A DNA stretch of 64,000 nt from a virus, in IMG/VR virus record IMGVR_UViG_3300042566_000678, positions 32,001-96,000 of that record; one strand, 5' to 3'. A program made the position numbers and the translations under genes. Positions 26,407 to 45,762 of the stretch are shown piece by piece; the first letter of the stretch is position 1; each line of letters begins with the position of its first letter. The notes below the pieces were generated by a model that saw only the letters and a list, made by a program, of their open reading frames with translations, had not been told where the DNA came from and searched no databases.

Positions 26407-26847
26407 TTAATCGAAAAATTCTACAATAATTCCGGCTTCTTTAAACATTTGATTGGAGCGTTCTGCTGACTCTTGCCACTTTGGACTCATTGCACCTTTA
26501 CCACTCCGTAGTACAATCTTCTCTACACCTGCTGATATAATTGCTCTTGCACAATCTGCACAACTAATACCACACGTCATATACATAGTAGTACCCAATG
26601 TGGATACACCGATACGAGCTGCGTTGTAAATACAATTTCGCTCTGCGTGTTCAAACCAAAAGTATTTCTCCGGCTTCTCTTGTCTTTCTACAACATCATC
26701 GTTTATACCACGAGGAAATGAGTTATAGCCGGTAGATACAATTTCATTGTTCTTACCAACTAACACCACACCAATCTTTGTATTATTATCTTTTGATTTC
26801 AACTTAACCTGTTCGGCGATGTTGATAAAGTATTCATCCCAATTCAT
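26407..26847 (-). CDS. dCMP deaminase
   Basis: WD.YF..IA, STGYN, HAERN and SCADC motifs. Confidence 0.9.
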   Translation of the reverse strand: MNWDEYFINIAEQVKLKSKDNNTKIGVVLVGKNNEIVSTGYNSFPRGINDDVVERQEKPEKYFWFEHAERNCIYNAARIGVSTLGTTMYMTCGISCADCARAIISAGVEKIVLRSGKGAMSPKWQESAERSNQMFKEAGIIVEFFD

Positions 26848-27221
26848 TATCCTATAACTCTGTTTATATAACTTCTTAAAAATAAATAAAGTAAATCGTA
26901 GTGTCTAATTACTTCCATAGGAATAACTGTATCTTTTAATATGTTATACGATGGTTTACTATTTTCCCACAACTTTACATCCAATTTACACACATCTCTA
27001 TATCTACCCAGTTCATCTGGGTAATTTAGTATCTCTCTATTTAAATTAAAGCAACCATTATAAGTTGTATTATTTGTATTGTTTGTATAATCAAACGGAA
27101 TGGAATATACATCATCAAATGTAGATAGATTAAACATCTTAAACTCAAACAACTCGCTATTACTACCAAACTGACTTTTATCAATCAGTTTATCAATCTT
27201 ATCTATGTTTATTCTTTTCAT
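26847..27221 (-). CDS. MLTIxN-family paralog (divergent)
   Basis: MKRINIDKIDKL...YSI.F...LNR...IRH plus a C-terminal helix. Confidence 0.5.
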   Translation of the reverse strand: MKRINIDKIDKLIDKSQFGSNSELFEFKMFNLSTFDDVYSIPFDYTNNTNNTTYNGCFNLNREILNYPDELGRYRDVCKLDVKLWENSKPSYNILKDTVIPMEVIRHYDLLYLFLRSYINRVIG

Positions 27222-27258
27222 ATGTTTAACTATTAAATTGTAATATACAACAAATATT

Positions 27259-27474
27259 TTACTTTTCCAAATTTTTCACACCATATTTTATGTATTTATA
27301 CCAAAATCTTTCGTGAAGAAAATAGATGAATGGTTTTAATACCAACTCACCCAAACTAAATGCTACTCCTATACGGACATCGCCACTCAAATACCACATA
27401 GTTAAGAAGCCAATAGAACTACTGATTATTCTGTAACTAATTGTTTTTAATATATGTCTTTTTACATCTATCAT
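27259..27474 (-). CDS. DUF2061-like membrane protein
   Basis: RH.LKTISYR...YF.HER.W. Confidence 0.75.
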   Translation of the reverse strand: MIDVKRHILKTISYRIISSSIGFLTMWYLSGDVRIGVAFSLGELVLKPFIYFLHERFWYKYIKYGVKNLEK

Positions 27475-27492
27475 TATATAACTAGATTAGCT

Positions 27493-28566
27493 TTACTCAT
27501 CATTGTTTCTAAATGGCTTCTCATACTTTGGTTTAATCATACTCCATATAATATGGTCATATGGTTGTTTATCCCACATCTTAAACATTACCGCAGATAA
27601 TTCTTTTGGAAATTGCTTAACATATTCTGCGAACTCCTTTTTAGTTGGTTCTACCTCCTTATCATTATACTTACCATAACGGAAACTATCGTGATATTTA
27701 CCTGCTCTCTCATCTATTGAGTGAAAACTATATCGTAAGTTCATAGCAGTTCGCTTAACCCAATCATCAAACTCATCGGGTACTCTTTCCAAAAATGGTC
27801 CTAAATCTTCTCCGTTTTTTAATAACTCCCATATATCTTTGGTAGAAAAGTTGGTAAGTATTCTGTGTAATCTCACATACTCATCTCCTTTAATCTTCAT
27901 ACGCATACCACCTGAAAAACGAATTACATATCCTTCGTTATCCTTTGAGATTTCTTTTTTAAGAGTTTTCCAATCTTCTCCCCAAGTCTTATACATCTTA
28001 ACAACTTCCCATCCACTCATCGCCTCAATCTTAACCTCTTCACCCGTTTCGTTATTATATGCACCCAACAAAACTAATTTCTCATCAGTACCATAATCTA
28101 CAACGATACGATTTTCTGGATAAATGATTTCAGCCAAATAAGTGTTATTAGTATCCAACACATCTAATGGTAACTTATCCAACATCTCCTTACCTTTGAT
28201 TGATTGTTCGGACGTGAATGAACCACGAGTTGCTATCAACCACTCACCTTCGTAATGGAATATAATACCTAACGAACCATCCATCTTCTCATACACCTCA
28301 AACGATTCACTTGGGATTGGTGGTAATTTAGAACCTTCGGCAGCATGTTCTTCGTAGTTGAAGAATTTTGGGAATGGCTTGGCAATAACATTGCCTTCTA
28401 AATCTAAAACCAATCCTCTACAATTTAAAGTAATATCATCCCATATACCACTATATTGTGTGGTACGAGAATAGTTGTATATTAACAACGGGAGTGTGGG
28501 GTGTCTTTGTGCAATCACATAATCACCTTCCAAATAATCCGATATATCACTTAAATTGTATTTCAT
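27493..28566 (-). CDS. RNA ligase (T4 Rnl1-like)
   Basis: CRGL, KFFN, EKMDGSLG (motif I), EGYV and KIK motifs. Confidence 0.9.
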   Translation of the reverse strand: MKYNLSDISDYLEGDYVIAQRHPTLPLLIYNYSRTTQYSGIWDDITLNCRGLVLDLEGNVIAKPFPKFFNYEEHAAEGSKLPPIPSESFEVYEKMDGSLGIIFHYEGEWLIATRGSFTSEQSIKGKEMLDKLPLDVLDTNNTYLAEIIYPENRIVVDYGTDEKLVLLGAYNNETGEEVKIEAMSGWEVVKMYKTWGEDWKTLKKEISKDNEGYVIRFSGGMRMKIKGDEYVRLHRILTNFSTKDIWELLKNGEDLGPFLERVPDEFDDWVKRTAMNLRYSFHSIDERAGKYHDSFRYGKYNDKEVEPTKKEFAEYVKQFPKELSAVMFKMWDKQPYDHIIWSMIKPKYEKPFRNNDE

Positions 28567-28946
28567 AATTTTATACTGAAACGATTTCGCATGTTTCCTA
28601 ATGTTGCATCTGGTACGTTGTGGATACTCTCACCATTGTGTCGGTTCTCTATAATCACCGATGTTACTTTGTATCCATATGTTTTGGCTAACTCATAGTA
28701 ATCTTCCATTTCCCACTCTTGTGTAAAAGTGTTGGATACAATTACTTTTGGTTTCTCTCTTTCCATATAGGATTGACATTGTTCTTTACACCAACGATGG
28801 GCTTCTTTGATTTTATTTATATCAAACTTATACTCACCACCTACCATAAAGTACATATCCGCCTCACAACGGAAACCACCAATCAAATCTGCGAATGTAG
28901 ATTTACCACTACCCGGCAATCCCCTTACTAATATCAGTTCCTTCAT
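28563..28946 (-). CDS. P-loop kinase (AAA_33, polynucleotide-kinase-like)
   Basis: RGLPGSGKST, VSNT and H.VP motifs. Start moved to MKELIL. Confidence 0.85.
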   Translation of the reverse strand: MKELILVRGLPGSGKSTFADLIGGFRCEADMYFMVGGEYKFDINKIKEAHRWCKEQCQSYMEREKPKVIVSNTFTQEWEMEDYYELAKTYGYKVTSVIIENRHNGESIHNVPDATLGNMRNRFSIKL

Positions 28947-29133
28947 TTGTTTTTTTAATTTCTTTCTTATGTTTAACAATTGCTTCACTCAACTCTTCCT
29001 TACTCATCTCCAAATAATTTGGAATACCTTTCTTCTTTGCGATAAACTGCAACTCATGCAAAAACAATTTGCCTGATTGTATAAATGATTTAGCGGGAGC
29101 TTCATCGTACTGAAATTCATTTGGATGTGTCAT
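28909..29133 (-). CDS. Rho termination factor N-terminal-like (HeH) small protein
   Basis: L.ELQ.IAKKKGI.NY..M.KEEL..AI. Start ATG 29133. Confidence 0.6.
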   Translation of the reverse strand: MTHPNEFQYDEAPAKSFIQSGKLFLHELQFIAKKKGIPNYLEMSKEELSEAIVKHKKEIKKTNEGTDISKGIAG

Positions 29134-29155
29134 ATGTGTTTGTTTTAGTGAATAA

Positions 29156-29187
29156 CAAAGGTAAGTAAAAAAATCCACATTTCCTAA
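29156..29187 (-). promoter_or_regulatory. 32-bp repeated promoter, copy 2
   Basis: 31/32 identical to copies 1 and 3. Confidence 0.8.
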
Positions 29188-29190
29188 TTA

Positions 29191-29550
29191 TTAGTAATTT
29201 ATTTTATAACGAGGATGGGGTACTACAAATTGTTCTATAATATCACCGATACGAAGCATGAAATCACCAGCTGGTTTTCTCAACCAATTACGAGTAACCC
29301 AATGTTCGTATATGATATAGGAGTTTTTATTTAAGAATTGGAGTTTATAGGTCTTATCACCAAGCATCTCTTCATCATATCCTTTTCTATGTAATCTTAT
29401 TTTTAAAAATTGTTTACCTTTATCCTTATCTAAATATATGGAATAATAATCTTCTACTAAATCACTAGCATCAATTATTTCCCAACCATTAAAATCAGCG
29501 TTCTCACTAATTTCAGCCAATCTATCCATAAAGTTTTGTATGGTTAGCAT
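29191..29550 (-). CDS. MLTIxN-family paralog
   Basis: Begins MLTIQNF, encoded by ATGCTAAC. Confidence 0.75.
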   Translation of the reverse strand: MLTIQNFMDRLAEISENADFNGWEIIDASDLVEDYYSIYLDKDKGKQFLKIRLHRKGYDEEMLGDKTYKLQFLNKNSYIIYEHWVTRNWLRKPAGDFMLRIGDIIEQFVVPHPRYKINY

Positions 29551-29813
29551 TATAGTAATTGGATTCCTTTTAATAACTCCGTAACTCCTTCTTCATTCAA
29601 ATATCCATGCACATCACCTTCGGCAACTGCATTATCATAATGTAATTCACCATCCGTATCCAACACTGCCAACTCATACAAACCATCCTTACCTCCGTAT
29701 GAATATTTATGACGTATCACACTTGCACCAAATCCGTTCTCAAACATAGTGCGAGAGTATATACCGCTCCCATCGGGTAACTCCTTAAACTCTAAATCTT
29801 TAAATTCTTTCAT
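29550..29813 (-). CDS. Hypothetical phage protein
   Basis: FENG.GASVI....SYGG..GLYELAVL pattern. Confidence 0.6.
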   Translation of the reverse strand: MKEFKDLEFKELPDGSGIYSRTMFENGFGASVIRHKYSYGGKDGLYELAVLDTDGELHYDNAVAEGDVHGYLNEEGVTELLKGIQLL

Positions 29814-29960
29814 AATGTGTGTTTGTTGTTTTTAATTCTAAATATAATTTCTCTAATCAGCCAGCCGGGAAATACAATCATCCATATCAATACGATAGAT
29901 GATAGTAATAGTAAATTGTTAAAAAAATGTTTCATAGTCGGTTTACGATTTTTTGATAGT

Positions 29961-30302
29961 TTAGTTATTCTGTAATTGGTAATCTAATGTATCTACTACG
30001 GATTGGATAAACGAATCTCTATCCTTTAATCCATTGGCACTTATCCCACCACTATCAAACTTCTTTTGATTTAAATAAATTATATACCTATATTGGTTCT
30101 TATAATCCTTATCAAACTCCCTACCAATAAGTATCTTACCTATGTTATTGCCTCCCAACTCAAATCCAATTGAATAGTATTCAGGTTCTAAAATGGTCAA
30201 ATCGGCATCATCGTATAAATGGACACCTTCGCTTACAAGATTAATCATCCACCCATTACAACGTATCCCTTCTAATGACCTAAAGTTTTTAATTGTTAGC
30301 AT
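29961..30302 (-). CDS. MLTIxN-family paralog
   Basis: MLTIKNFRSLEG...LKD. Confidence 0.75.
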   Translation of the reverse strand: MLTIKNFRSLEGIRCNGWMINLVSEGVHLYDDADLTILEPEYYSIGFELGGNNIGKILIGREFDKDYKNQYRYIIYLNQKKFDSGGISANGLKDRDSFIQSVVDTLDYQLQNN

Positions 30303-30303
30303 G

Positions 30304-30627
30304 TTATGTATGTTTATTAACTTGTTTATTAACTATTTTGCATAGAAATTCAATCATCATATTCATATCTTTAATGTAATCGGCATCTACACAAAATCCG
30401 ATTTTTTTATTTTCGTAATAAAAGAAGTATCTCCATTCACCATTACCCAATGATTCTAATCTTCTACTCAAATGAAATTCTTTTGTATCAATAATAGGTG
30501 AATATGCAGGATTCTTTAAATGTATTGCATATGTATCCGCTTTCTCTATGCAAAATTCTACTCCCCACCCTCCGGTAAAATCTAAAAACCTTCCTTCTAA
30601 TTTAGTGTAGTTTTGTATTGTTAGCAT
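30304..30627 (-). CDS. MLTIxN-family paralog
   Basis: MLTIQNYTKLEG...IKD. Confidence 0.75.
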   Translation of the reverse strand: MLTIQNYTKLEGRFLDFTGGWGVEFCIEKADTYAIHLKNPAYSPIIDTKEFHLSRRLESLGNGEWRYFFYYENKKIGFCVDADYIKDMNMMIEFLCKIVNKQVNKHT

Positions 30628-30630
30628 ATC

Positions 30631-31107
30631 TTATTTTTTAATAACAAACCACTCCGTACTACCCCAATTACCACTATACCTATTATGGTATCTATTTCCA
30701 TCACGCCTCATTTCATCAAAATACCTAAACATTTTATTTTTGCTCAAAATCATTTTTTTAGTCCAACCATTAAAAATATCATTACCATATACTCGTTTAA
30801 GTAGTTTAGTAGTATCATCAAACTTTTTTGGAAATGGGAACTCATCATTAACTACATACCTATTCTTAAATGAATACCCACATATACCTTTTATGGACAA
30901 AACACATTTTTCTTCTTCTATTAGCATATCCGTAATAGATGCGTTTTTATCAAATAACTTAAAACTGACTATCTCCAAATTTTTGTAGTTGGGAAATTGC
31001 TTTAATCTTTTGTAAACGTTATAAGAATACCCAATTTTACATAGTTCGTATTTAGGAAACATTGAACCAAACTTTTTATCTCTAATATAATAAACACCAG
31101 TACTCAT
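30631..31107 (-). CDS. GIY-YIG/T5orf172-like endonuclease, probably mobile
   Basis: GVYYI...KIGYS.NV.KRL.Q...E...EWF. Confidence 0.65.
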   Translation of the reverse strand: MSTGVYYIRDKKFGSMFPKYELCKIGYSYNVYKRLKQFPNYKNLEIVSFKLFDKNASITDMLIEEEKCVLSIKGICGYSFKNRYVVNDEFPFPKKFDDTTKLLKRVYGNDIFNGWTKKMILSKNKMFRYFDEMRRDGNRYHNRYSGNWGSTEWFVIKK

Positions 31108-31136
31108 ATCTTATTGTAGTTTTCTATGGTTAGCAT
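31104..31136 (-). pseudogene. 10-codon MLTIxN stub (MLTIENYNKI*)
   Basis: ATG CTA ACC ATA GAA AAC TAC AAT AAG ATA TGA. Its stop overlaps the nuclease ATG. Confidence 0.7.
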
Positions 31137-31462
31137 AATTTTGGTAAAAGTCTAGATGAAATCCATTCTAATAAATGAATAGGGTCTTTTAAGTATTGAC
31201 AATGAATCCTATATCTTCTATTTGTTAATGATAGGCAATCTATTTGGTACTCAAATCCATTATCCATTAGCTGTCTCCATACCCATATATACTCAACCTT
31301 TTTTATGTTATATACTCTATTACCTTCATCTGGCATCAACGAAAGTTTATAGAACTCTGGTTGCTCATCTATGGATGCAACTATCCATTTGGTTATTCCA
31401 CCCGGTGAAAACGATTGGGTTTCCATACCCCTTATCTTATCGTAGTTTTTTATGGTTAGCAT
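31130..31462 (-). CDS. MLTIxN-family paralog
   Basis: MLTIKNYDKIRG...LKD. Confidence 0.75.
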   Translation of the reverse strand: MLTIKNYDKIRGMETQSFSPGGITKWIVASIDEQPEFYKLSLMPDEGNRVYNIKKVEYIWVWRQLMDNGFEYQIDCLSLTNRRYRIHCQYLKDPIHLLEWISSRLLPKLC

Positions 31463-31463
31463 A

Positions 31464-31808
31464 TTACTTATATTCTTCCATAGTTTTAAGCATAAGTGAA
31501 TAGAAATCCACTTTCTTTTTTAGTAGGATTCTTCCAACTTTAGTTTCAACTACAAACCCATCTCTATTTGTACCCGGCGTTGCCAGTTTAGTATCGTAAA
31601 GTCGTAAACGATATATGGATTGTTGGTAACTCGCCGGTACTCTATCCAAAAGAAACTTAAAACGTCGGGGTATCCCATAGGCATTCCAATAGAATGAATA
31701 ATACTCTCCATCACCATTTGGTTTTACAGAAGATAACCCGCCATCGCATAATGTGTACTCACCTATGGTCAGACCTATATCTTTTCTTACGTTTTGTATT
31801 GTTAGCAT
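31464..31808 (-). CDS. MLTIxN-family paralog
   Basis: MLTIQNV. Closest to 32108-32497 (YY.FYW, RFK..L.R, ET.VG). Confidence 0.75.
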   Translation of the reverse strand: MLTIQNVRKDIGLTIGEYTLCDGGLSSVKPNGDGEYYSFYWNAYGIPRRFKFLLDRVPASYQQSIYRLRLYDTKLATPGTNRDGFVVETKVGRILLKKKVDFYSLMLKTMEEYK

Positions 31809-31809
31809 A

Positions 31810-32106
31810 TTAAAAATGAAAAGTAAATTTGTCTAATGCTTTTAGTAGATTGTTCATATCTGCTATATAATCTATGGTTACACTTTGGTTGGTAGCTTTG
31901 CGAGATTCATCGTAGAATCTATATACAAACCTATCACCAATGTGTAAGGTCTTCTTTCTTTGTAGATAAACCTTTATAGATGATAAATGTTTGTGTTCTA
32001 ATTTAATCTCATAGAAATTAGAGTCTTCCCCACAATACTCAACTTTCCAACCCGATTGTCCTATGGGTTTGTCACATAATAGATAATAATTTTGTATCTT
32101 TAGCAT
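31810..32106 (-). CDS. MLTIxN-family paralog
   Basis: MLKIQNY. Closest to 30304-30627 (GW.VE.C.E, DYI.DMN). Confidence 0.75.
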   Translation of the reverse strand: MLKIQNYYLLCDKPIGQSGWKVEYCGEDSNFYEIKLEHKHLSSIKVYLQRKKTLHIGDRFVYRFYDESRKATNQSVTIDYIADMNNLLKALDKFTFHF

Positions 32107-32107
32107 A

Positions 32108-32497
32108 TTACATAAACATTATTATTTTATTTGTCATCCAAGTATAAAATCCAATTCTATCTTTTAGGTGTGTACGTGTACCCACAGATGTTTCATAAAT
32201 TAAACCCTCCCTGCCACTATGAGTGAAACCTTTTTGCTCGTCGTAAATCTTAAAGTTGTATATGGATGTTGTACCTACTATTGGGTTTCTTTCCAAAAAG
32301 CATTTGAACCTACTACGCCAAATCCTGCTCCTTCCATCGTTGTAACTCCAATAGAATGCGTAATAATCATAGTTACCCGAAATACCCGTTACTTCATCAG
32401 GTCGATTGTACAAACCTGCATTTACTAATTTGAATGAACCTATCACCATTCCAACATCTGGGTCTGCACCTTTTGTTTGGTTTTGTATTGTTAGCAT
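32108..32497 (-). CDS. MLTIxN-family paralog
   Basis: MLTIQNQ...LKD. Confidence 0.75.
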   Translation of the reverse strand: MLTIQNQTKGADPDVGMVIGSFKLVNAGLYNRPDEVTGISGNYDYYAFYWSYNDGRSRIWRSRFKCFLERNPIVGTTSIYNFKIYDEQKGFTHSGREGLIYETSVGTRTHLKDRIGFYTWMTNKIIMFM

Positions 32498-32500
32498 ATC

Positions 32501-32848
32501 TTATTTGTGACCAAAGTATTTGTGAAAATCTTCTAATTTAGCTATCATCCAACTATTGAACGCGGCGAATGATAGGAATTGGGATGTACGGACGAAATCA
32601 AAAGCTGGGAGTGTGGTGTGGAATATTTCTCCTACGCCGCTTGTAGCTACCTTAACCGTATAGAATTGTTTCTCCCAATTGAACTCCATTAGGATTACAT
32701 TACGAGAACTAGGATTTTGTGGGTATATCCATACTTGATTACCTATACTACCATCTGCTGATAATTTATATACATAATCACCAGGAAATGGACCTGTTTT
32801 GATTATATGTCCATCAACCTTTTGTGCGAAATTTTGTGGTGCTTTCAT
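32501..32848 (-). CDS. Hypothetical protein, possible distant MLTIxN member
   Basis: MKAPQNFAQKVDG. First gene after promoter copy 3. Confidence 0.5.
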   Translation of the reverse strand: MKAPQNFAQKVDGHIIKTGPFPGDYVYKLSADGSIGNQVWIYPQNPSSRNVILMEFNWEKQFYTVKVATSGVGEIFHTTLPAFDFVRTSQFLSFAAFNSWMIAKLEDFHKYFGHK

Positions 32849-32874
32849 ATGATTTATATTTAACTGATGTTTAA

Positions 32875-32906
32875 CAAAGGTAAGTAAAAAAATCCACAAT
32901 TCCTAA
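32875..32906 (-). promoter_or_regulatory. 32-bp repeated promoter, copy 3
   Basis: Identical to 26371-26402. Confidence 0.8.
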
Positions 32907-32934
32907 TTTTTACTTAATTATTTAATATCCAAAC

Positions 32935-33180: not shown

Positions 33181-33183
33181 ATC

Positions 33184-33420: not shown

Positions 33421-33425
33421 ATCTT

Positions 33426-33578: not shown

Positions 33579-33583
33579 ATCTT

Positions 33584-34376: not shown

Positions 34377-34413
34377 ATCTTTATGTTTAAATTGTTTCTC
34401 TCTCAATGTTTAG

Positions 34414-34445
34414 TAAAGGTAAGTAAAATATCTTACAATGTCAAG
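34414..34445 (-). promoter_or_regulatory. Early-type promoter
   Basis: CTTGACATTGT...TACCTTTA, 20-nt spacer. Confidence 0.75.
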
Positions 34446-34456
34446 TCTTTTCTTAA

Positions 34457-34801
34457 TTATTTTAAAGGAAGTTCTAACCCTAATTGTAGTTCAAAGATGT
34501 GGTATTCGATTTCGGTAAGTGTCTTCTTACCACAATTACGTTGAGCCATTAATCTGGCTTGGGTTAGTTTAAGGAAATCACCGATAGTAACGATACCCAT
34601 TGCCTTAACAACCTGATATGCTCTAAACGATATATCCAAATCCGTAACTGGTGATAGGGGGTTAATTTCGATTTGGGTTAGGGATTCTACCTTCGCTGAA
34701 TGAATTGCTTCCTCTAACTGACGATTTAACTCCTTCATACGTTTGTTGTATTCGGATTGTAACTTTTGAATTTGATTGGAAATGGATTGTAGATTGTTCA
34801 T
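34457..34801 (-). CDS. Stand-alone RNA polymerase alpha-subunit C-terminal domain protein with an N-terminal coiled coil
   Basis: V.DLDIS.RAY......GI.TIGD........L...RNCGKKTL.EI. Start 34801. Confidence 0.8.
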   Translation of the reverse strand: MNNLQSISNQIQKLQSEYNKRMKELNRQLEEAIHSAKVESLTQIEINPLSPVTDLDISFRAYQVVKAMGIVTIGDFLKLTQARLMAQRNCGKKTLTEIEYHIFELQLGLELPLK

Positions 34802-34833
34802 ATTTTCGATGTTTATGTCTAACTGATGTTCTA

Positions 34834-34865
34834 TAAAGGTACGCAATAATAACCACAATGTCAAG
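34834..34865 (-). promoter_or_regulatory. Early-type promoter
   Basis: CTTGACATTGTG...TGCGTACCTTTA, 20-nt spacer. Confidence 0.75.
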
Positions 34866-34989
34866 TCTTTTCTTAATTATTTTTTCTTTTTGTCATTTTT
34901 TTATACCTCCATATAGGATAGCAAAAAAGTAAATAGCGATAACCCTATTCAGACATACCCTTTGGGTATAATAGTATATTAAATAAGTC

Positions 34990-35926: not shown

Positions 35927-35980
35927 AGTAGTATATTTTATGTTTAACTGAATGTCAGAAGCGTTTCCCCCAACGTTTAA

Positions 35981-36012
35981 TAAAGGTACGCAAAATATTT
36001 CACAATGTCAAG
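35981..36012 (-). promoter_or_regulatory. Early-type promoter
   Basis: CTTGACATTGTG...TGCGTACCTTTA, 20-nt spacer. Confidence 0.75.
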
Positions 36013-36563
36013 TCTTTTCCAAATTATTTTTAAAATAAATTAAAATTATTTCGTGAGCATATACACAGCATTCACACGTACTACCATACGGATGTAAAAA
36101 TATATCTTCAAAAAAAATTGTATTATTCTTATAAACTGATTTACATATGTAAACAACACGCGTGTGAATAGGTGGAATTGAGAGAATTTCTCGTACGCAC
36201 GAATGAAATGTGCGCTGAAATAATGCATAGGATTATTCCGTAATTAGTGATTTAACTAATTAGTTGTTTAACTAAATACCTAAATATGTGAAAGTGTGTA
36301 AAATAAATTCAGGATTCCTTGGTTTTTTGCTCACAAATGAATATGTACTTGGCGTCCTTCAGGTGCGTTGTACCCGTATAGGGGACAGTGGGTTTCTTTT
36401 GCTATTTCCTATTGTGTTAATTACCCGTCTAACTAATTAGTTAAATAACTAAATATCCATACCTCGTCAATAAGGGCTTTTATACACCTCTCGTATGTGA
36501 TTATATACCTATGATGATTTTAACACCTTATAGACGAGCAAAAGAATAGACTATGTGTAACGA

Positions 36564-37015: not shown

Positions 37016-37369
37016 CTATTGTATTACTTGTCTCCCACCACTATGTATTTGATTAAATACCCTTCTTATATCCTTAAAATCTTCTACTCTTAAAAATTTA
37101 GTACATCCTCTTGCAAGGGGTACGTTTACATTCTTACAATAGATTTTTACATATTCATGTCCAGCGAAATCATTTGGGTCATACATTTGTTGTGTTTCCT
37201 TATAGATTTGTACTAATATCTTTATATCCTTTTGTTCCTTATCCTTTAAGACGTACTCATATATACCCCCAATTGGGTTATCTCCTACATAATGTATTTT
37301 CCAACTCGTTAAACTCTTTTCTACGAAATTTACTAGCCTATTAGGATTTTCTATGTTTATCCTTTTCAT
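37016..37369 (-). CDS. MLTIxN-family paralog
   Basis: MKRINIENPNRL...W...Y...FKD. Confidence 0.6.
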   Translation of the reverse strand: MKRINIENPNRLVNFVEKSLTSWKIHYVGDNPIGGIYEYVLKDKEQKDIKILVQIYKETQQMYDPNDFAGHEYVKIYCKNVNVPLARGCTKFLRVEDFKDIRRVFNQIHSGGRQVIQ

Positions 37370-37767: not shown

Positions 37768-38307
37768 CTAATCCTCATCCCATTCATAGTATCCCGTATA
37801 GACATCCAATAATTTCTTCTTAAATTTACTCACATCTTTTATATCATCTATGGATATGGTACTCCAATTATCACTATCATAATCCTCCAACCTATACAAT
37901 CCTTTTGAGTGTTCTTTTCTTTGTAGTTTAATATTCATCTCCGATGGACAATCCTCATATCTTCCACTAAAATCCCCATGTATAATAAATGTATATTCAT
38001 CCTTATCTTTATAGCATTTATGTATATTCGGCCATGGGTGATTACTATCATCATCCAATAGTTGATTTTCTAACTTACTAAAATTTTCGATATTTAACCT
38101 CATACCCTTTCTTTTAGGTTTAAGATTATACTCATCTAATAACTCATCTATAAGCTCTTTATCCTCATCAAATATATCTTCCCCATCAAAAAATACTTTC
38201 TTAACCCACCCATAGGTTTCTTCATCATCACCCTCTACCATTTGGATAATATCATTTATGGCGTTAGCCCATAGCATCTTTTGTACTTCTCTTTCCGTTG
38301 GTTTCAT
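37768..38307 (-). CDS. Two-domain protein: acidic N-terminus plus MLTIxN-family domain
   Basis: Internal MRLNIENFSKLE...W...YTF...LQR...YRL...IKD. Confidence 0.6.
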   Translation of the reverse strand: MKPTEREVQKMLWANAINDIIQMVEGDDEETYGWVKKVFFDGEDIFDEDKELIDELLDEYNLKPKRKGMRLNIENFSKLENQLLDDDSNHPWPNIHKCYKDKDEYTFIIHGDFSGRYEDCPSEMNIKLQRKEHSKGLYRLEDYDSDNWSTISIDDIKDVSKFKKKLLDVYTGYYEWDED

Positions 38308-38339: not shown

Positions 38340-38681
38340 TTATACCCCAATCTCCATCAACTGTCCTATTCTCTTCAATAGGGTATCCTTATCTCTTATA
38401 TCACTTGCCATCATATTCAACGTTTCTCCTCTACCATCTCTCAATGTGTATATTGGTGTGTGCGGCATTGAATCCCATATCCCCCCATGTCTAACCAATT
38501 GGACCTCACTCAACCCTACCATATCCTCATATTCGGTATGTAAATGAAAAGTATATAAATCCTTGTCCTCTACCACTCCGTTTATCACACATTTGAAAGC
38601 TCCATTCGGAAATTTTTGAGGTATTTCACACTTTACGATTTTATCCACATTATGGATTTTAATGGTCCTCGTCCCTATCAC
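38340..38681 (-). CDS. MLTIxN-family paralog
   Basis: TIKIHNVDKI...YTF.L...LVR...YTL...IRD. Confidence 0.6.
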   Translation of the reverse strand: MIGTRTIKIHNVDKIVKCEIPQKFPNGAFKCVINGVVEDKDLYTFHLHTEYEDMVGLSEVQLVRHGGIWDSMPHTPIYTLRDGRGETLNMMASDIRDKDTLLKRIGQLMEIGV

Positions 38682-39007: not shown

Positions 39008-39143
39008 ATCTTTATTGTTTATATCTCACTAATATACGAAATTATTTTCATAAAACCAAGGGGAAAGCATAAAAACTGAATCAAGGTAACTATCAAAAAA
39101 ATTAGGTTTCGACTCCGTTTCCTACCCCCGCCCCTCCCCCACG

Positions 39144-39731
39144 CTAAAATGGGTTATATGATGGGTTATGTTTTGTTGCTTGAATCATTGCTTTCTCATA
39201 CTGACTGAAAATATGCTCAACAAAAAATTCTTTACTCTTTAATACTTTTAGTGGTACTTTAGACCAGGAATACCCAACTGGTTGTTGTTTTTTATATACA
39301 GGTCTTACATCTTCATACCTTACCACCATCCTTACATACTTACCAATATTTTCATCCAATGGTGAGTCTTTATCCTCTTCTATTGGTTTGTATATCTTTA
39401 CAATACCACCACCTTGTGGCTTCGGACTTGAGAAACTCGGTAACAAATTAGATTGTTCTGTTATCGTATATGGGTAGTACTCTTCTTCAGGTGCCAATGT
39501 AGTGAATACAGAAGATGGTTTTAAAGATAGTGTTACACCATTTATCACCTTCCTTGCATTCAACTCCTTATAGTTATGCAGTTTGATATTCTTTACCCCT
39601 GGCTTATCTTTGATGTGGGCTTGGTATTGGTCAATTGCTTCCATTAGTTTTTGATTACTACTATCTATTTTGTGTGCTATTCTATCAAGTGTTATAGCAC
39701 GCATTATATCTGCGTATTCCATTGATTTCAT
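39144..39731 (-). CDS. Hypothetical protein with a possible internal MLTIxN-family domain
   Basis: Internal IKLHNYKEL...YY...LKS..F. Confidence 0.45.
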   Translation of the reverse strand: MKSMEYADIMRAITLDRIAHKIDSSNQKLMEAIDQYQAHIKDKPGVKNIKLHNYKELNARKVINGVTLSLKPSSVFTTLAPEEEYYPYTITEQSNLLPSFSSPKPQGGGIVKIYKPIEEDKDSPLDENIGKYVRMVVRYEDVRPVYKKQQPVGYSWSKVPLKVLKSKEFFVEHIFSQYEKAMIQATKHNPSYNPF

Positions 39732-39952
39732 ATCTCCCCAAAATATTGTGCCGTTACTGCTATGAATACTCGCATTATATTTTCATCTACCTTACCCTCT
39801 GCTCTAACAAAATCCATATAGATTTCCGCAAGGTATTTAGTCATCTCACTCTGCTTATCTATGTTATTGGTTTTGGATTTCTGAATCATCTTCATCTTCG
39901 CCTCATATCCACCATGCTCATAGAATTGGTTGAACTTATCTATTATAGTCAT
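39728..39952 (-). CDS. Hypothetical protein
   Basis: 74 aa ORF. Confidence 0.45.
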   Translation of the reverse strand: MTIIDKFNQFYEHGGYEAKMKMIQKSKTNNIDKQSEMTKYLAEIYMDFVRAEGKVDENIMRVFIAVTAQYFGEI

Positions 39953-39964
39953 CCGTTTATCTTT

Positions 39965-40246
39965 TTAATATGGTTTCCAACCATTTCGTTTTCTTTCCTC
40001 ATCTTTTAACCTTTGGTATTCCCTTGCGTTCTCCTTATCTTTCAAATAATCTCTAATTGGTAGTGAAATCACAAACACCATACCAATCAATAATATGGTA
40101 GTTAGCACATAGGGTAAGTAATCACCCAATAGAACTCCAATTGTCAGTATTACTAAAATTATACCAATAACAGCCATTACCATTAACGCTGCAATTCCAA
40201 TTGCGGTGATGTTTCTTTTCCAAACGTGTTTTGTGTATTGATTCAT
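39965..40246 (-). CDS. Two-TM membrane protein
   Basis: Two hydrophobic helices. Confidence 0.55.
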   Translation of the reverse strand: MNQYTKHVWKRNITAIGIAALMVMAVIGIILVILTIGVLLGDYLPYVLTTILLIGMVFVISLPIRDYLKDKENAREYQRLKDEERKRNGWKPY

Positions 40247-40248
40247 CT

Positions 40249-40752
40249 CTAAAATTTATATCCAACTCCCAAACCTATGGTTGATATTTTGGAAACCTGA
40301 CATTCTGTTCTAATCATTCCCTTTTTGTCTTCTCCAAAATAAAAATCAATACCAACCCCAACATATGGTTTTTGATATTTTTTATTACCAGTTGTAGTAA
40401 TGTCCTGTACAAACTGTCCACCAGCCGAAACAAACACATTTGCATTCTTATTGTTGTTTATATTAAACATAGGAACGAATACTCCTAAATTTCTAAAAGA
40501 ACTACTAATTGTATATGTATTTCCGTTAATAAAGTTTGTAGCATCCTCATCACCCAATGTCATCCCACGTTTAAACTCAATACCCACTTTTCCAAAATTA
40601 ACCCACCCACCATAAATCATTGATGGATTCAAACGATTTGTTGTAAAACCACTTACTCCACCAATTGTATAAATTACTTTCTGATTGGTTTTGTCTTGTC
40701 CATACGATACGGACGATAATAATAATCCTGCAATTACTAATAATTTTTTCAT
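40249..40752 (-). CDS. Putative outer-membrane beta-barrel protein
   Basis: Signal peptide, Gly/aromatic alternating strands, C-terminal GLGVGYKF. Confidence 0.65.
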   Translation of the reverse strand: MKKLLVIAGLLLSSVSYGQDKTNQKVIYTIGGVSGFTTNRLNPSMIYGGWVNFGKVGIEFKRGMTLGDEDATNFINGNTYTISSSFRNLGVFVPMFNINNNKNANVFVSAGGQFVQDITTTGNKKYQKPYVGVGIDFYFGEDKKGMIRTECQVSKISTIGLGVGYKF

Positions 40753-40850
40753 AACCTTTTTTTGTTTATTTCTTTGATGTCAATCTACCGTAGATAACAC
40801 CCACTAAAAATACAGATACTATTGTACCTATCATTACTAACTCTACCACA

Positions 40851-41387
40851 TTATTTATGTTTTTTTAAGAAAAATACCAATGTCAATCTACTATTTTCTT
40901 TTGTATCCCCAAACGGATTTGTTGGTCCATGTAGTATATCGGCTGGATATATTACCATTGTATTATATACATTCTCTGCTTCACCAACCTTATTACCTTC
41001 ATCATCGAAAAATGATGTCCCACTATTTTTTGGTGGGTTAGGGGTTAAATACACTAAACCTACTATCCTAGAATCATTACTATCGTAGTGCTTTGATGCT
41101 TCCTCAAAGCTTTCAGTAGTAAAATTAGCTCTTACCTCCTCCGATGTTATATGGAAATACAATTCCATTTCACCATATTTAAAATTAGGTATTCTAAATG
41201 AAACTTCTTCAACTATCATTCTCTCTAAATCAACCCCAGCCACTACTCTGTTTGTGGGATTAACTCTCATACCCCGCCAACCTTGCGTTGGTGATGGACC
41301 ATCAAAATCCATATTTAAAGCACACTCTCTTATCTCATCTGGATTATCAAAGAAATTATCTATCTTATATACCTTTACTATTTCCAA
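40851..41387 (-). CDS. 2OG-Fe(II) oxygenase-like protein (DUF6445-like)
   Basis: IDNFF.NP..IR, HYD, YL.P, GT.F, H and RL motifs. Confidence 0.75.
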   Translation of the reverse strand: MEIVKVYKIDNFFDNPDEIRECALNMDFDGPSPTQGWRGMRVNPTNRVVAGVDLERMIVEEVSFRIPNFKYGEMELYFHITSEEVRANFTTESFEEASKHYDSNDSRIVGLVYLTPNPPKNSGTSFFDDEGNKVGEAENVYNTMVIYPADILHGPTNPFGDTKENSRLTLVFFLKKHK

Positions 41388-41925
41388 TGATATTATTATC
41401 TTTTATTGATGCAAAAAATGTTAATGCTAATCTACTATCCTCATTGGTTTCACCAAATGGATTTGTGGGGGCGTGGATTATATCAGCAGGGTAAAATACA
41501 AATCTATTATACACATTTTCCACCTCTCCAATCTTTCTACTAACATCGTCAAAAAATGATGTACCACTATGCGGTGGGGGTTCTGGTGATAAATAAACTA
41601 CACCTGCAAAATGTATTACTTCGCTATCGGTGTGTGATTGTAGATAATCAAATTTATCACCCATATCTCCCCTTACACTTTCAGGTAATAAATGAAATAC
41701 CAATCTTAAATCAAAATCAGGTACATCTGGCAACCAACCTTTAACTTTATCTTTTATATAAGTTTCTATGTTAATTTCACCAATTTCAATATCCAAATCT
41801 TCGGTTCTTAAACCCAACCAGCTTTCATCCGTATCCGGCGTTCTATATGATTGAGCAAGAGCACATTCCCTAATTAAATTTGGGTTCTCAAAAAAATTAT
41901 CACATTGTAGTGCTCTTACTTGCAT
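41365..41925 (-). CDS. 2OG-Fe(II) oxygenase-like protein (DUF6445-like), tandem paralog
   Basis: Shares SGTSFFDD...GE.ENVYN....YPADI.H.PTNPFG.T.E.SRL with its neighbour. Confidence 0.75.
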   Translation of the reverse strand: MQVRALQCDNFFENPNLIRECALAQSYRTPDTDESWLGLRTEDLDIEIGEINIETYIKDKVKGWLPDVPDFDLRLVFHLLPESVRGDMGDKFDYLQSHTDSEVIHFAGVVYLSPEPPPHSGTSFFDDVSRKIGEVENVYNRFVFYPADIIHAPTNPFGETNEDSRLALTFFASIKDNNIIGNSKGI

Positions 41926-42409
41926 ATTGTTCTCTAATTTTAGTTCCACTTATTTGTGCTATATCAGCTGGTGGTTCGTGGTATATTACATCGTACCCAA
42001 CACCTCTACCATAGTTTACTGAATCAATATCAGGTATGATTGAAACCATTATTCTATCTTTGTTTTTAATAAAAAATGTTTCATCTAGCAAATCTAGCCA
42101 CACCCTATGTGAAGTTTTAGGATTGTTTTCATCCGTAGGTACATCCCTAATAGCTACCCATACATTTTTTCCCTTTTCCAATTGTTGGTTTATTAGCCAC
42201 TCATGTCCTTCATGCCAATTTTGCCACCTACCGATAAATAAACTATACTTTAATTGTGTTTTAGGCATACAACGATATTTTGTAGTAGGTCCTTTGGGGG
42301 CTACATACACAAAATCATCATCGCCAATGGGCTCGAATTGTCTGAATGGTTTGTGTTCTTTCTCAAACTCATTTAAACGATTGTTTATATCCTCTAAATC
42401 AATTCCCAT
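41900..42409 (-). CDS. Cytidylyltransferase-like nucleotidyltransferase
   Basis: FIGRWQNWHEGH (HxGH) and ISGT.IR motifs. Confidence 0.8.
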   Translation of the reverse strand: MGIDLEDINNRLNEFEKEHKPFRQFEPIGDDDFVYVAPKGPTTKYRCMPKTQLKYSLFIGRWQNWHEGHEWLINQQLEKGKNVWVAIRDVPTDENNPKTSHRVWLDLLDETFFIKNKDRIMVSIIPDIDSVNYGRGVGYDVIYHEPPADIAQISGTKIREQYASKSTTM

Positions 42410-42411
42410 AG

Positions 42412-42678
42412 TTATTCACCTAAATACTCTTTTCTATAATATGCCTCATCAAAATAATACAATCTATACTCTTCCAAATAATTTTGTAATTTACACAAAT
42501 CACACCCATCAATAGTCTTATCTTTGATGCTTGATTCACTATGTATAAAATCTAAATCATTTATTTTTTGGATGAATGATTTAGTGCTTTCAATACAATG
42601 TGGTTGTATTTCATCAAACTCTCTACTATGTAATGCTGCTATAAATTCCTTAAATGTATATTTTTTTTTAGCTTCCAT
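42412..42678 (-). CDS. Hypothetical protein
   Basis: Start moved to MEAKKK. Confidence 0.45.
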   Translation of the reverse strand: MEAKKKYTFKEFIAALHSREFDEIQPHCIESTKSFIQKINDLDFIHSESSIKDKTIDGCDLCKLQNYLEEYRLYYFDEAYYRKEYLGE

Positions 42679-42679
42679 A

Positions 42680-42988
42680 CTATTTTTTTGATTTTTTCTT
42701 TGTTGCTTTTTTAATTGGTTCAACTACCACTTCATCCACTTGCTCTGTAATTTCCTTTGGTATATTTAACTGCTGAAAGATGTGTTCGTTTTCCTCACTT
42801 CTCTCCAAATTAACCAAATCGTAATCATCATCCTCTACCATACCCCACTCTGGTCTTTCCCATAGTTCTTTGACAAGATTCTTAATATCCTCTTCTTCAG
42901 GAGCACCTTCCCAAACACAAATGTGCTTTACCAATACTCTACCATCTTCCTGATTCTTTGTTGCAATCGTTGCGTATTTAACTTCCAT
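42680..42988 (-). CDS. Hypothetical protein
   Basis: Acidic, with a basic tail. Confidence 0.5.
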   Translation of the reverse strand: MEVKYATIATKNQEDGRVLVKHICVWEGAPEEEDIKNLVKELWERPEWGMVEDDDYDLVNLERSEENEHIFQQLNIPKEITEQVDEVVVEPIKKATKKKSKK

Positions 42989-43144
42989 TTCTATATTGTT
43001 TTTAATAATTCTCTTAACTCTTTTACTCTCAATCTACCTTCTGCATATTGGTCATCATCGGATGCTCTGTGTCCGTTTAGGTTGGCAATCGTTATTTCAT
43101 ATTCTAACTTAACCAACTCCGATATTATATCATTAAAATCCATT

Positions 43145-43591
43145 CTATATTGTTATGTATTTTCGTTTTATTCTACCAGCACCTTTGTATCCTTTCTTAT
43201 ACTTTGGTTCATCTAAATTACTAATCTTCACACCTTCTGCTCTATTGGCAGCGTGTACTATTTGGTTATTACCTATGTATGTACCACAATGCCAACCCGA
43301 TGGTGATATTCTACTTCGAAAGAATACCAAATCACCAAAAGATAAACTATCTCTATCAACCCTATCGGTTTGTATCCATTGTGTTTGACAATTGTTACCC
43401 AATCTAATATCAAATACCTCCTTATATAGGCGTTTGTTGAATTGTGAACAATCTATACCTCTTTCAGTAACACCACCTAACCTATACGGCTTACCCACCC
43501 AATGCTCTATAAACCTATTCATAGTTGAATCAGTTGTTTGTGCAAAGGTAGGTAAACTTAATAATACAAATATACTAAATTTTTTCATCAT
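43145..43591 (-). CDS. NlpC/P60 peptidoglycan peptidase
   Basis: GKPY.LGG....GIDCS, GDLVFF, HCG.YIG and HA motifs. Confidence 0.9.
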   Translation of the reverse strand: MMKKFSIFVLLSLPTFAQTTDSTMNRFIEHWVGKPYRLGGVTERGIDCSQFNKRLYKEVFDIRLGNNCQTQWIQTDRVDRDSLSFGDLVFFRSRISPSGWHCGTYIGNNQIVHAANRAEGVKISNLDEPKYKKGYKGAGRIKRKYITI

Positions 43592-44208
43592 TCACAAATA
43601 AATCTTATCTTTCTTTCTATTGAATCCTTTTCAATCCTAACAAATAATTTTGATGTTGGTATCTCTTTTGTTATATGAGCCACAGCAGTAATGGTTATTG
43701 TATCTCCCTTCATATAGTATATTGGAGCAACCATAGTATTCACACTACCATCCGATGATGATGGATACGATGAACCATTTACCGTTGGAATTAATGAATT
43801 TGATTGAGACTTAAATGTACCCAATTCAGCTGTTGTCAGTTTTCCTGTAAATGTGTTAAAATAGGTTTTATATACTACGAATAAATTAGTTTTATTATTT
43901 AAAATCCAATAATGAGAACTTTTCCATTCTATTTTACAATCAACGGGTGATGGAATTGGATTTGGTTCACCATTCCACAAAAATTTTCCGGTGATACGGC
44001 TAAATGTTTGAAAAGTATTTTCTGATAATTTTAGATGATAGTATCCATTTATATCCTTTGGTAAACTCCTAGTACCAAATCTATTTAAAGCAGAATCCAA
44101 TTGGAATGTAAAATTGTATGCAGGTGGTTTAGGTACTATATATTGCGGCTCTTCGTAGCAAGATATTAATCCTAATAGTATCGGTAAAAATAATAGTAAC
44201 TTTTTCAT
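43588..44208 (-). CDS. Putative lipoprotein
   Basis: Lipobox LISC after the signal sequence. Confidence 0.65.
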   Translation of the reverse strand: MKKLLLFLPILLGLISCYEEPQYIVPKPPAYNFTFQLDSALNRFGTRSLPKDINGYYHLKLSENTFQTFSRITGKFLWNGEPNPIPSPVDCKIEWKSSHYWILNNKTNLFVVYKTYFNTFTGKLTTAELGTFKSQSNSLIPTVNGSSYPSSSDGSVNTMVAPIYYMKGDTITITAVAHITKEIPTSKLFVRIEKDSIERKIRFICE

Positions 44209-44552
44209 CGTTCATTTACAAAATCATCTAGCATCTCATTTAATGCCTTTATAATATTATCACTACTCTCTAATGCTTTCTTTTTTATACCCAAATCCTT
44301 TCGTTTAACCCGCCCATCATCAAAACGTTGTATGATATGGGTGTCATAAACTGGTGTTTTATCGTTTGGAAACTTTGGGTCTACATCGGTTCTTTTGTTT
44401 CTAGCTATTCCTATGTATATTGGTACATTATGAAACTCAAATGCATACTCTACGAATATCCTATATGCCAATTCGTTTTCTTCGATGCTTTGTATGTACA
44501 ACCTACCTTCGAAATACCCATTCAGTTTATCAAAATTACTTATGGTTAGCAT
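44205..44552 (-). CDS. MLTIxN-family paralog
   Basis: MLTISNFDKLNG...YRI...IAR...Y. Confidence 0.75.
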   Translation of the reverse strand: MLTISNFDKLNGYFEGRLYIQSIEENELAYRIFVEYAFEFHNVPIYIGIARNKRTDVDPKFPNDKTPVYDTHIIQRFDDGRVKRKDLGIKKKALESSDNIIKALNEMLDDFVNER

Positions 44553-44890
44553 TACAATTCCACCCCCCTTATAATTTCTTCAACACATTTTAATAGTATA
44601 TACCTATTTTCTATATGCTTTGTTCCTACAAACATTTCGTCCAAAGATACCCAATTATTTGATGCTTGCCATAGTTTTGTTTCTAAATGGTATCCGTGTC
44701 CATCAACTTTGTTTCTATTGAGTGATACCTCTATAACAGGAAATTCAGATGGATTTGGTTTATTATAGAAAGCTAATACATATGCTTCATCGGAAGAATA
44801 TGTTTCCGTTGCTGTCCACATACCAAAATCAAAATAAACAGTATTAAGTGGTTCTTCTAATTTATGAAAGTTCTTTATTGTTAGAGTCAT
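44552..44890 (-). CDS. MLTIxN-family paralog
   Basis: MTLTIKNFHKLE...W...YVL...LNR...YHL. Confidence 0.75.
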   Translation of the reverse strand: MTLTIKNFHKLEEPLNTVYFDFGMWTATETYSSDEAYVLAFYNKPNPSEFPVIEVSLNRNKVDGHGYHLETKLWQASNNWVSLDEMFVGTKHIENRYILLKCVEEIIRGVEL

Positions 44891-45467
44891 ACATTTCTAA
44901 AACATAGTTTATTACTACTCTCCTATCTGATAATTTTGGTGTTGTTGATGTGTGAACTCGATTTGAATCAAATAATATACCAGTACCACCTTTTGGGGTT
45001 TGTCTATAAATTTCTTTTAGTTGGCTTATATTATGTTCGTTTCCATCTAAATATGTATCAAACAATATAGTATCACCATCCGAATCATTTACATAATAAA
45101 CAAATGATAATAGATTTGGTCCAGAATAATCTATATGAGGACCATTATAAAAATCATTTGGATACGAAGCATCGCCAACCATAAGGTTTGCTTTAATACG
45201 AATTACTTTTTTTATTTTACTACCAGCTTCCTTTTCAATTATTCCCAGCATTTCTGAAAAATAATGGTAATATATACTTTTTTGTTGCTTATCAATCAAT
45301 ATGGTATGCGTGAATTGTGGCATATCTTTGGTTTTTGAATCAACAACAGTACCATAATCTCCTTCAAGCAATGTTGCACCATTCCAATACCAATCAAACT
45401 CCGAACCAAGCATTAATTCTGCCAAAACATCGGCATATTCCTTATCTATTTCTATTCTTTTTACCAT
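44862..45467 (-). CDS. 2OG-Fe(II) oxygenase
   Basis: PHID, YYVNDSDGDT, H and RVVIN motifs. Start MVKRIE. Confidence 0.8.
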   Translation of the reverse strand: MVKRIEIDKEYADVLAELMLGSEFDWYWNGATLLEGDYGTVVDSKTKDMPQFTHTILIDKQQKSIYYHYFSEMLGIIEKEAGSKIKKVIRIKANLMVGDASYPNDFYNGPHIDYSGPNLLSFVYYVNDSDGDTILFDTYLDGNEHNISQLKEIYRQTPKGGTGILFDSNRVHTSTTPKLSDRRVVINYVLEMYDSNNKELS

Positions 45468-45762
45468 AATAATTTTCAAATAAATCCATAAATCCACTAA
45501 CTATGAAAGAAACATCGTTTGAGGTTTTAATGTGCGATGGTATAAATTGTGCAGTATCTTTATATTTTCCATAACTGAAATGGATTTCATAAAAATTACT
45601 ATGTTGATTTCTATATATCATTATATTACCACCTTTCTTTTTGTGGTTAAACATAATTTTATATACACCATCCAATACTAATACATGGGTAATAATAGAA
45701 CCCATATCGGTTTTTTTACCAATTAAGGTTTCAATCGTTGGAATTATCAGTTTCTTGCTCAT
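45442..45762 (-). CDS. Possible divergent MLTIxN-family paralog
   Basis: LIIPTIETLIG...YKI.F...IYR...YEI...IKT. Confidence 0.45.
   Translation of the reverse strand: MSKKLIIPTIETLIGKKTDMGSIITHVLVLDGVYKIMFNHKKKGGNIMIYRNQHSNFYEIHFSYGKYKDTAQFIPSHIKTSNDVSFIVSGFMDLFENYYGKKNRNR

Follow-up and report, generated by a model that had tools for sequence, protein, structure and literature searches.

A multigene family of small phage proteins with a common predicted scaffold, encoded in tandem arrays with a conserved coding start

The DNA analysed here is a stretch of 64,000 nucleotides (the window), corresponding to bases 32001-96000 of a virus record of 148,235 bp in IMG/VR (IMGVR_UViG_3300042566_000678) that has a CheckV completeness of 80%; the GC content is ~32%. 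Nearly all the genes between 25 and 47.5 kb of the window lie on the minus strand, and among them are tandem arrays of short open reading frames (ORFs) that mostly begin with the sequence MLTIxN or a variant of it. Comparison of their sequences indicates that these belong to a genuine, as yet undescribed multigene family that encodes small phage proteins (about 95-130 aa), with 14 firm members in the window and one probable member, the ORF at 26847. One compact α+β scaffold is predicted for every member, and the first 18 bases of the genes are conserved beyond the need of the protein.

A single family of strongly diverged proteins

The original prediction, made from the window sequence, had described about 16 highly diverged paralogs, and all of the ORFs that it listed are found on the minus strand where it had placed them. 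Ten of these, of 98-129 aa, open with MLTIxN or MTLTIxN (29191, 29961, 30304, 31130, 31464, 31810, 32108, 37366, 44205 and 44552). They are indeed highly diverged; the median pairwise identity is 18% (range 7-40%), and pairwise comparison using phmmer joins just two pairs, 30304 with 31810 (E = 1e-9) and 31464 with 32108 (E = 1e-15). The assertion of a single family therefore requires tests that are based on profiles.

Leave-one-out hidden Markov models (HMMs) were constructed from nine members each, having cut the first 12 residues from every candidate, and were run against all 1219 phage ORFs. In seven of the ten runs the omitted member ranked first, and in the remaining three it stood behind other candidates (38340, the domain within 37768, and 45442). 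ORF 45442 recurred as the top match from outside the training set. The similarity thus extends beyond the N-terminal residues, as had been proposed.

When 1.84 billion representative proteins were searched exhaustively with an HMM, 160 clusters were matched at E ≤ 1e-3; nearly all of these are 90-125 aa in length, match from end to end and start with MLTIxN. The single long match (P0248, 569 aa, containing repeats) looks spurious, and no longer fused form (308-2000 aa) was found, the search being weak evidence on this point. An alignment of 150 rows taken from these clusters (A3), only four of them from the window, was converted to a profile that matches 12 places in the phage genome at E values from 4e-29 to 5e-11, i.e. 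the ten ORFs above together with 38340 and the C-terminal domain of 37768. Weaker scores were obtained for 45442 and 37016 (1e-4 in both cases) and for 26847 (0.08), and the next ORF scored 0.29. ORFs 37016 and 26847 form an 'INIEN' subfamily that was aligned with its own orthologs, with no MLTIxN member included (A4). Comparison of A4 with A3 using hhalign matched 100 columns over the full length (Prob 92.8, E = 3.9e-7), and L009, a related phage, has an ortholog of 26847 that matches the family HMM at 6e-7.

The possibility that only the N-terminal motif is common, and that the bodies of the proteins are unrelated, is ruled out by the leave-one-out HMMs, the A3 profile and the alignment of A4 with A3. 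Two candidates were rejected. ORF 32501 gave an hhalign E value of 0.26, and in the 39144 domain only the motif NIKLHNYKELN can be aligned (E = 0.13). The number of paralogs that was predicted is reduced to that given above. The members have no signal peptide, and are therefore presumably cytoplasmic.

No known family was recognized in the original prediction, and this is borne out by the searches. Scans of the ten core members against Pfam-A and PHROG gave no match, and the same scans of the 150 family sequences gave single matches at the level of chance only. The divergent members gave nothing in Pfam or PHROG but a sub-threshold match of 45442 to Imm9 (E = 0.0075, 16.8 bits compared with a cut-off of 25 bits). 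A search of PDB sequences with the family profile returned nothing below E = 0.49.

Predicted fold, conserved core and variable surface

The 31810 protein was modelled using AlphaFold2 with alignment A3, giving a predicted local distance difference test (pLDDT) score of 93.9 and a predicted template modelling score (pTM) of 0.83. The model has an N-terminal segment, a helix (residues 7-10), six strands (20-27, 31-38, 44-49, 53-55, 59-65 and 71-76) and C-terminal helices at 78-81 and 84-92. The divergent 37016 protein was folded from A4, i.e. without MLTIxN rows to avoid circularity. This gave a model with a pLDDT of 90.4, in which the order of segment, helix, strands, short helix and long helix is as in 31810. 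The two models were compared by the order of their elements assigned by DSSP, and by their lists of structural neighbours. In both there is a helix, then five to six consecutive strands and then helices. Moreover the neighbour lists from an all-against-representatives structural search overlap strongly, with BacA (8q8o), SycH (1ttw), SchA (4g6t) and DR_1245 (4h5b) in both, and further common neighbours that include SycN/YscB (1xkp), Mediator (7emf_Q), Atg10, Cap2 and capping protein. The scaffold predicted for all members is an N-terminal segment (LTIxN), a short helix, a five- to six-stranded antiparallel β meander and C-terminal helices. Homology at the level of profiles, and the equal order of elements in two independent models, agree with the earlier proposal that one scaffold has been expanded and diversified.

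Only L2, I4, N6, Y32, R50 and Y62 are nearly invariant in the 150 sequences. The conserved columns are L2 (96%), I4 (99%), N6 (99%), K9 (71%), W20 (73%), Y32 (100%), L48 (82%), R50 (97%) and Y62 (89%), followed by I/L81-K-D and then an amphipathic helix; these statistics reproduce the skeleton of anchor residues that had been noted in the window. Changes in length occur only in the loops (after residues 16, 27, 40, 43, 55, 68 and 71) and at the C-terminus, so the loops vary in both length and sequence as originally described. The isoelectric points (pI) of members range from 4.6 to 9.7, and their net charges from -18 to +8. In every strand there is an alternation between hydrophobic positions that are conserved and others at which the entropy is maximal (3.5-4 bits). 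Because of this alternation it is likely that one face of the sheet is buried under the N-terminal segment and the C-terminal helices, while the other face and the loops are free to vary. Read in this way from the alternation pattern, the residues L2, I4, N6, W20, Y32, L48, R50 and Y62 would all face inward, as would the last helix on its hydrophobic side.

The LTIxN sequence is retained when it is internal, lying behind helical N-terminal extensions of 40-75 aa in three homologs (P0144, P0165 and P0186) and in the 37768 ORF of the window. The motif must therefore matter to the protein, and not just to the start of translation. In the 31810 model this segment is part of the fold, with a pLDDT of ~92. 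The extension in the 37768-38307 ORF is acidic as well as helical, and similar extended forms are found among the homologs from outside the window.

Foldseek searches with the 31810 model (against PDB and BFVD) and the 37016 model (against PDB) found nothing at E < 0.08, and a feature search of the ESM Atlas returned only unnamed viral clusters at 0.83, which is the level of chance. The shapes nearest to the models are those of type III secretion system (T3SS) chaperone/YbjN-like proteins and of RWD/E2-like domains. It is improbable, however, that the family members serve specifically as chaperones or adaptors of proteins made by the phage itself (cargo or ejection proteins, for example), with one paralog per client in the manner of the class I T3SS chaperones. 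BacA is T3SS chaperone-like, with an α-β3-α-β2-α topology (PMC10948618). The helix in the middle of the sheet, between strands 3 and 4, that is found in this group (SycH 1ttw, SchA 4g6t, ExsC 3kxy and BacA 8q8o) is absent from both models of the phage family. The phage proteins are not uniformly acidic, and their genes lie in an auxiliary region behind host-type promoters, away from the structural genes. Compared with the RWD/E2 (UBC)-like domains (Ctf19-Mcm21 5mu3, Knl1 4nf9, Atg10 4gsk and Cap2 7to3), the phage family has six strands rather than four and lacks the catalytic cysteine and the HPN and YPxxxP motifs, and the structural scores are at background level. There is no conserved Cys, His or Pro column in the 150 sequences. 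Since the family has no mid-sheet helix and no such conserved residues, and is not uniformly acidic, we assign it to neither group.

We think it very unlikely that these are small nucleic acid-binding regulators of phage or host gene expression. Several members are basic (pI 9.2-9.7), a gene for a protein resembling the C-terminal domain (CTD) of the RNA polymerase α subunit is present in the same region, and coat proteins of single-stranded RNA phages occur among the weak Foldseek rows. Yet other members are acidic, with pI values down to 4.6, there is no conserved basic patch, and the sole conserved charged residue, R50, is on the side of the sheet that is conserved. There was also no match to a known fold that binds DNA or RNA.

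Operons, promoter-like elements and the conserved coding start

The family genes and associated features of the window are listed in Table 1.

Table 1. Members of the family and associated elements in the window.
Feature	Position	Strand	Evidence and remarks
Promoter-like element TTAGGAATTGTGGATTTTTTTACTTACCTTTG	32875..32906	-	27 nt upstream of first gene of main array; 3 copies vs 0 expected
Family member, 129 aa, starts MLTIQN	32108..32497	-	A3 HMM E 1e-12; pairs with 31464 at 1e-15
Family member, 98 aa, starts MLKIQN, modelled	31810..32106	-	HMM E 1e-28; AlphaFold pLDDT 93.9
Family member, 114 aa	31464..31808	-	HMM E 8e-13
Family member, 110 aa	31130..31462	-	HMM E 2e-17
Ten-codon stub (MLTIENYNKI, stop) with conserved DNA head	31104..31136	-	Stop overlaps next ATG (ATATGA)
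158-aa ORF inserted in array, weak T5orf172/MUG113 (GIY-YIG-like) similarity	30631..31107	-	Pfam E 0.003-0.007, below cut-off
Family member, 107 aa	30304..30627	-	HMM E 4e-29
Family member, 113 aa	29961..30302	-	HMM E 1.5e-19; 53 orthologous clusters in metagenomes
Family member, 119 aa	29191..29550	-	HMM E 8.5e-21
Family member, 119 aa	37366..37725	-	HMM E 2e-18
Divergent member, 117 aa, 'INIEN' subfamily, without conserved Arg	37016..37369	-	HMM E 1e-4; hhalign A4/A3; model pLDDT 90.4
Family domain, C-terminal part (~residues 65-179) of 179-aa ORF 37768-38307	37768..38115	-	HMM E 2e-13, residues 63-174
Family member, 113 aa, head TIKIHN	38340..38681	-	HMM E 5e-11
Family member, 115 aa	44205..44552	-	HMM E 9e-16
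Family member, 112 aa, starts MTLTIKN	44552..44890	-	HMM E 5e-15
Divergent member, 106 aa	45442..45762	-	HMM E 1e-4 over residues 5-93; recurrent top non-training match in leave-one-out runs
Probable divergent member, 124 aa, 'INIDK' type	26847..27221	-	HMM E 0.08; hhalign full length E 9e-4; L009 ortholog 6e-7

The array genes are arranged in tandem and are tightly coupled, with overlaps or gaps of 1-4 nt between neighbours. Three copies of a 32-nt element, TTAGGAAnTGTGGATTTTTTTACTTACCTTTG, are present, compared with none expected. One (32875-32906) lies 27 nt upstream of the gene that opens the main array, a second (29156-29187) directly follows the last gene of that array and heads the next unit, and the third (26371-26402) lies ahead of a phosphoesterase gene and heads the unit after that. 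Since there is a promoter-like element before the first gene and the next copy comes after the last, the main array (32848 down to 29191) is a single operon, probably read by the host RNA polymerase. It contains ORF 32501, seven family members, the stub, the nuclease-like gene and a gene for an 87-aa protein. The latter (29550-29813, minus strand) has a match to PHROG 4074 (E = 1e-12, function unknown), and at 79-92% in relatives it is far better conserved than its neighbours.

The -7 consensus of Flavobacterium is TAnnTTTG (PMC6847099), and the -7 element of the array promoter, TACCTTTG, fits this. The strict -33/-7 pattern TTTG-N16-22-TAnnTTTG is found 18 times in the window compared with 5.6 expected, with no copy directly before the arrays; the array promoter was found only by a relaxed -7 search and as a repeat. 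The statement that the genes form tandem, coupled clusters behind host-type promoters is upheld for the tandem coupling and, in the case of the main array, for a promoter of Bacteroidota type. A related class of element is present on the minus strand at 34411-34450, 34831-34870 and 35978-36017. Both of the repeated promoter-like classes are ~35-40 nt in length and end in TACCTTTG or TACCTTTA, and they partition the region into separate units of transcription. One of these elements is overlapped by the ORF listed at 28909-29178, which is probably not a gene.

The family genes start with a conserved head of 18 nt, ATG CTA ACN ATA NAR AAY. Within the head Leu2 is encoded by CTA in 11 out of 11 cases, compared with 12.5% of leucine codons genome-wide, and Ile4 by ATA in 10 out of 11 (37% background). 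Asn6 is mostly AAC, and the third base of Thr3 varies. In arrays of distant phages CTA is used in 12 of 17 heads, against a background of 7-12%. The known determinants of initiation in Flavobacterium are located upstream of the ATG (PMC6847099), and therefore do not explain the conservation of the head. We considered whether CTA is used because the phage supplies tRNA-Leu(UAG); this is not specific, as it is one of 25 tRNAs that cover most amino acids. The tRNA genes are in a minus-strand block outside the window, at 140814-147667 of the record, that includes Leu(TAG), Leu(TAA), Thr(TGT), Ile(GAT) and one gene with a CAT anticodon.

The stub MLTIENYNKI (31104-31136) terminates within the sequence ATATGA, so overlapping the ATG of the 158-aa ORF, while the full head of the next member comes after the stop codon of that ORF. 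The insert therefore lies between two copies of the head, and it has no counterpart in the array of the closest relative. From its weak similarity to GIY-YIG-like sequences it is possibly a homing endonuclease.

There are two candidate readings of the conservation of the head, as a recombination or cassette site in DNA, or as a signal at the RNA level for coupled translation. On either, the 18-nt head would be the unit under selection, with the family as its usual cargo. We regard this as rather unlikely, while noting that it is compatible with the function in binding that is proposed below. It accords with the bias to CTA and ATA codons in the heads with the third base of Thr3 left free, a bias to CTA being present in the distant arrays too. 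It also accords with the position of a head-bearing stub directly before the nuclease-like gene, with its overlap of stop and start and a further head beyond that gene, and with a 1.8-kb difference from the closest relative that covers whole genes, head to head. Against this, the preservation of LTIxN behind N-terminal extensions, and its place within the modelled fold, indicate that the residues are needed by the protein. Moreover a single stub was found in all the DNA searched, and the initiation determinants of Flavobacterium are upstream, not downstream, of the ATG. It is similarly doubtful that the head is a functional nucleic acid element (a recombination docking site or a translation-coupling leader) for the exchange and expression of gene cassettes in the manner of an integron. 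If that were so, an integron-like shuffling device would be built into the start of a protein family, its cargo being new family bodies together with foreign genes such as the nuclease.

Distribution, turnover and possible function

No match was obtained in 50,697 phage records, either by megablast with the 20-kb region or by tblastn with two family members, and the RNA ligase encoded near the arrays found only relatives of <40% identity, in unrelated phages; no cultured relative or host was found by these searches. Three related virus contigs were found using a single family member as the query. The closest relative (L009) lacks 31810, 31464, 31130, the nuclease-like gene and 30304. Two other relatives differ in gene order, have extra members and carry another inserted ORF, of 173 aa. 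Related phages have 4-8 or more copies, differing in content and order. The content of the arrays changes quickly. Three distant contigs of 100-165 kb (GC 29-33%) carry 13, 6 and 11-12 members within 20 kb when counted using the family HMM, and expansion therefore characterizes a broader group of large phages with low GC. The phages that carry the family are probably phages of Bacteroidota.

The ratio of nonsynonymous to synonymous substitution (dN/dS) relative to L009 is 0.13-0.39 for the orthologs of four members, compared with 0.02-0.27 for flanking genes. Relative to a more distant phage it rises to 0.52; the values overall resemble those of the flanking enzymes (0.02-0.36). The orthologs are under purifying selection, and are thus working genes.

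In several of the related phages (L009:4110-4565, and homologs P0013, P0016 and P0182) a 38-aa CxxC...CxxC segment is in frame before the ortholog of 29961. It starts with MPTIHN or MSVHN, i.e. a degenerate head, and is either a fused zinc-ribbon extension or the result of a mis-called upstream start.

We tentatively propose that the family is a repertoire of diversified binders, a reading that we put a little short of probable. The scaffold would present a variable exposed face of the sheet together with the loops, and each paralog would bind a different protein partner early in infection. Binding could lead to takeover of the host, or to neutralization of host defence or toxin proteins, and the phage lineage would both maintain and turn over such a repertoire. 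This fits with the conserved core and hypervariable exposed face, the varied charge, the early operons and the rapid gain and loss of genes, and with the fact that the nearest shapes are protein-binding modules.

A number of observations weigh against it. The sidedness of the variable and conserved positions is taken from the alternation pattern and not from coordinates, and early timing of expression is inferred from promoter motifs only, with no promoters identified for the clusters at 37-38 kb and 44-45 kb. The whole-gene dN/dS values of the orthologs (0.13-0.52) contain no signal of the positive selection expected of an arms race. Lastly, neither the exhaustive search nor the related and distant contigs provided a partner, a fusion to a known domain, or a constant neighbouring gene that would point to a target.

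Diversified arrays of immunity genes are known in bacteria, and tandem, small, diverged α+β paralogs are typical of immunity gene clusters. The phage arrays share with the polymorphic toxin immunity arrays (Imm and SUKH) the tandem arrangement of small paralogs, strongly diverged but conserved in their core, there are nuclease-like genes inside or beside the arrays, and there is the sub-threshold match of 45442 to Imm9. The members might therefore be immunity- or antitoxin-like proteins directed against host abortive-infection toxins, polymorphic toxins or the phage's own nucleases, but this seems to us a poor prospect. The Imm9 match is below the cut-off and is confined to one divergent member, and none of the 150 members matches the Imm or SUKH families of Pfam at E ≤ 0.01. 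Profile scans of neighbouring genes found no toxin domain, no toxin gene is paired with the members, and the arrays are set in an early operon of a phage.

As a kind of locus, a cluster of small early phage genes with fast turnover is already known from the hyperplastic regions of T4-type phages that carry PeSL cassettes (Arbiol et al. 2010, PMC2839356; Comeau et al. 2014, PMC4122927). In these too, small early genes with no known function are clustered in large phages, closely related phages differ in the genes that they carry there, and a short DNA motif is repeated at the borders of cassettes. However, PeSLs are intergenic units of promoter and stem-loop that flank unrelated ORFans, whereas the genes of the phage family are mutually homologous, are separated by 1-4 nt within one operon that has a single promoter, and have as their repeat the first 18 coding bases. 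Thus there is no intergenic early promoter and stem-loop terminator round each gene; the promoter element is present once per array, and the repeat is inside the coding start. The family, its fold and the repeat at the coding start have not been described in the libraries and literature searched.

The array region is an auxiliary part of the phage genome, and not a virion part. Recognizable genes near the arrays, from profile matches, encode an Rnl1-type RNA ligase, an AAA_33 kinase, an HNH nuclease, an RNA polymerase α-CTD-like protein and three 2OG-Fe(II)/DUF6445 oxygenases. There are also dCMP deaminase-like and metallophosphoesterase-like genes, the names of which rest on sequence only. 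The RNA ligase and kinase genes are adjacent (27493-28988, minus strand) and look like a set for tRNA repair; the pair is conserved in related phages. The α-CTD protein (34457-34864, minus strand; 135 aa) has a clear domain (Pfam RNA_pol_A_CTD, E = 8e-13) and is encoded behind a promoter repeat; its possible roles are as a decoy or as a modulator of transcription by the host. The oxygenase genes (40851-41387, 41365-41949 and 44862-45497) are all on the minus strand, and the first two are adjacent paralogs that contain a 192-nt direct repeat with 72% identity.

In large phages much of the genome is taken up by small early genes with no known function. A single self-similar family accounts here for ~10% of a 20-kb region; its confidently predicted fold is absent from Pfam, PHROGs and PDB, and the family has been expanded independently in several uncultured phage lineages. 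The conservation of the gene start at the level of codons bears on the initiation of translation, or on the exchange of cassettes, in a group of hosts that do not use Shine-Dalgarno sequences. If the members are binders they would constitute a natural library in which one scaffold carries many specificities, and would be a starting point for finding targets of host defence and takeover in Bacteroidota, the phage biology of which is poorly known.

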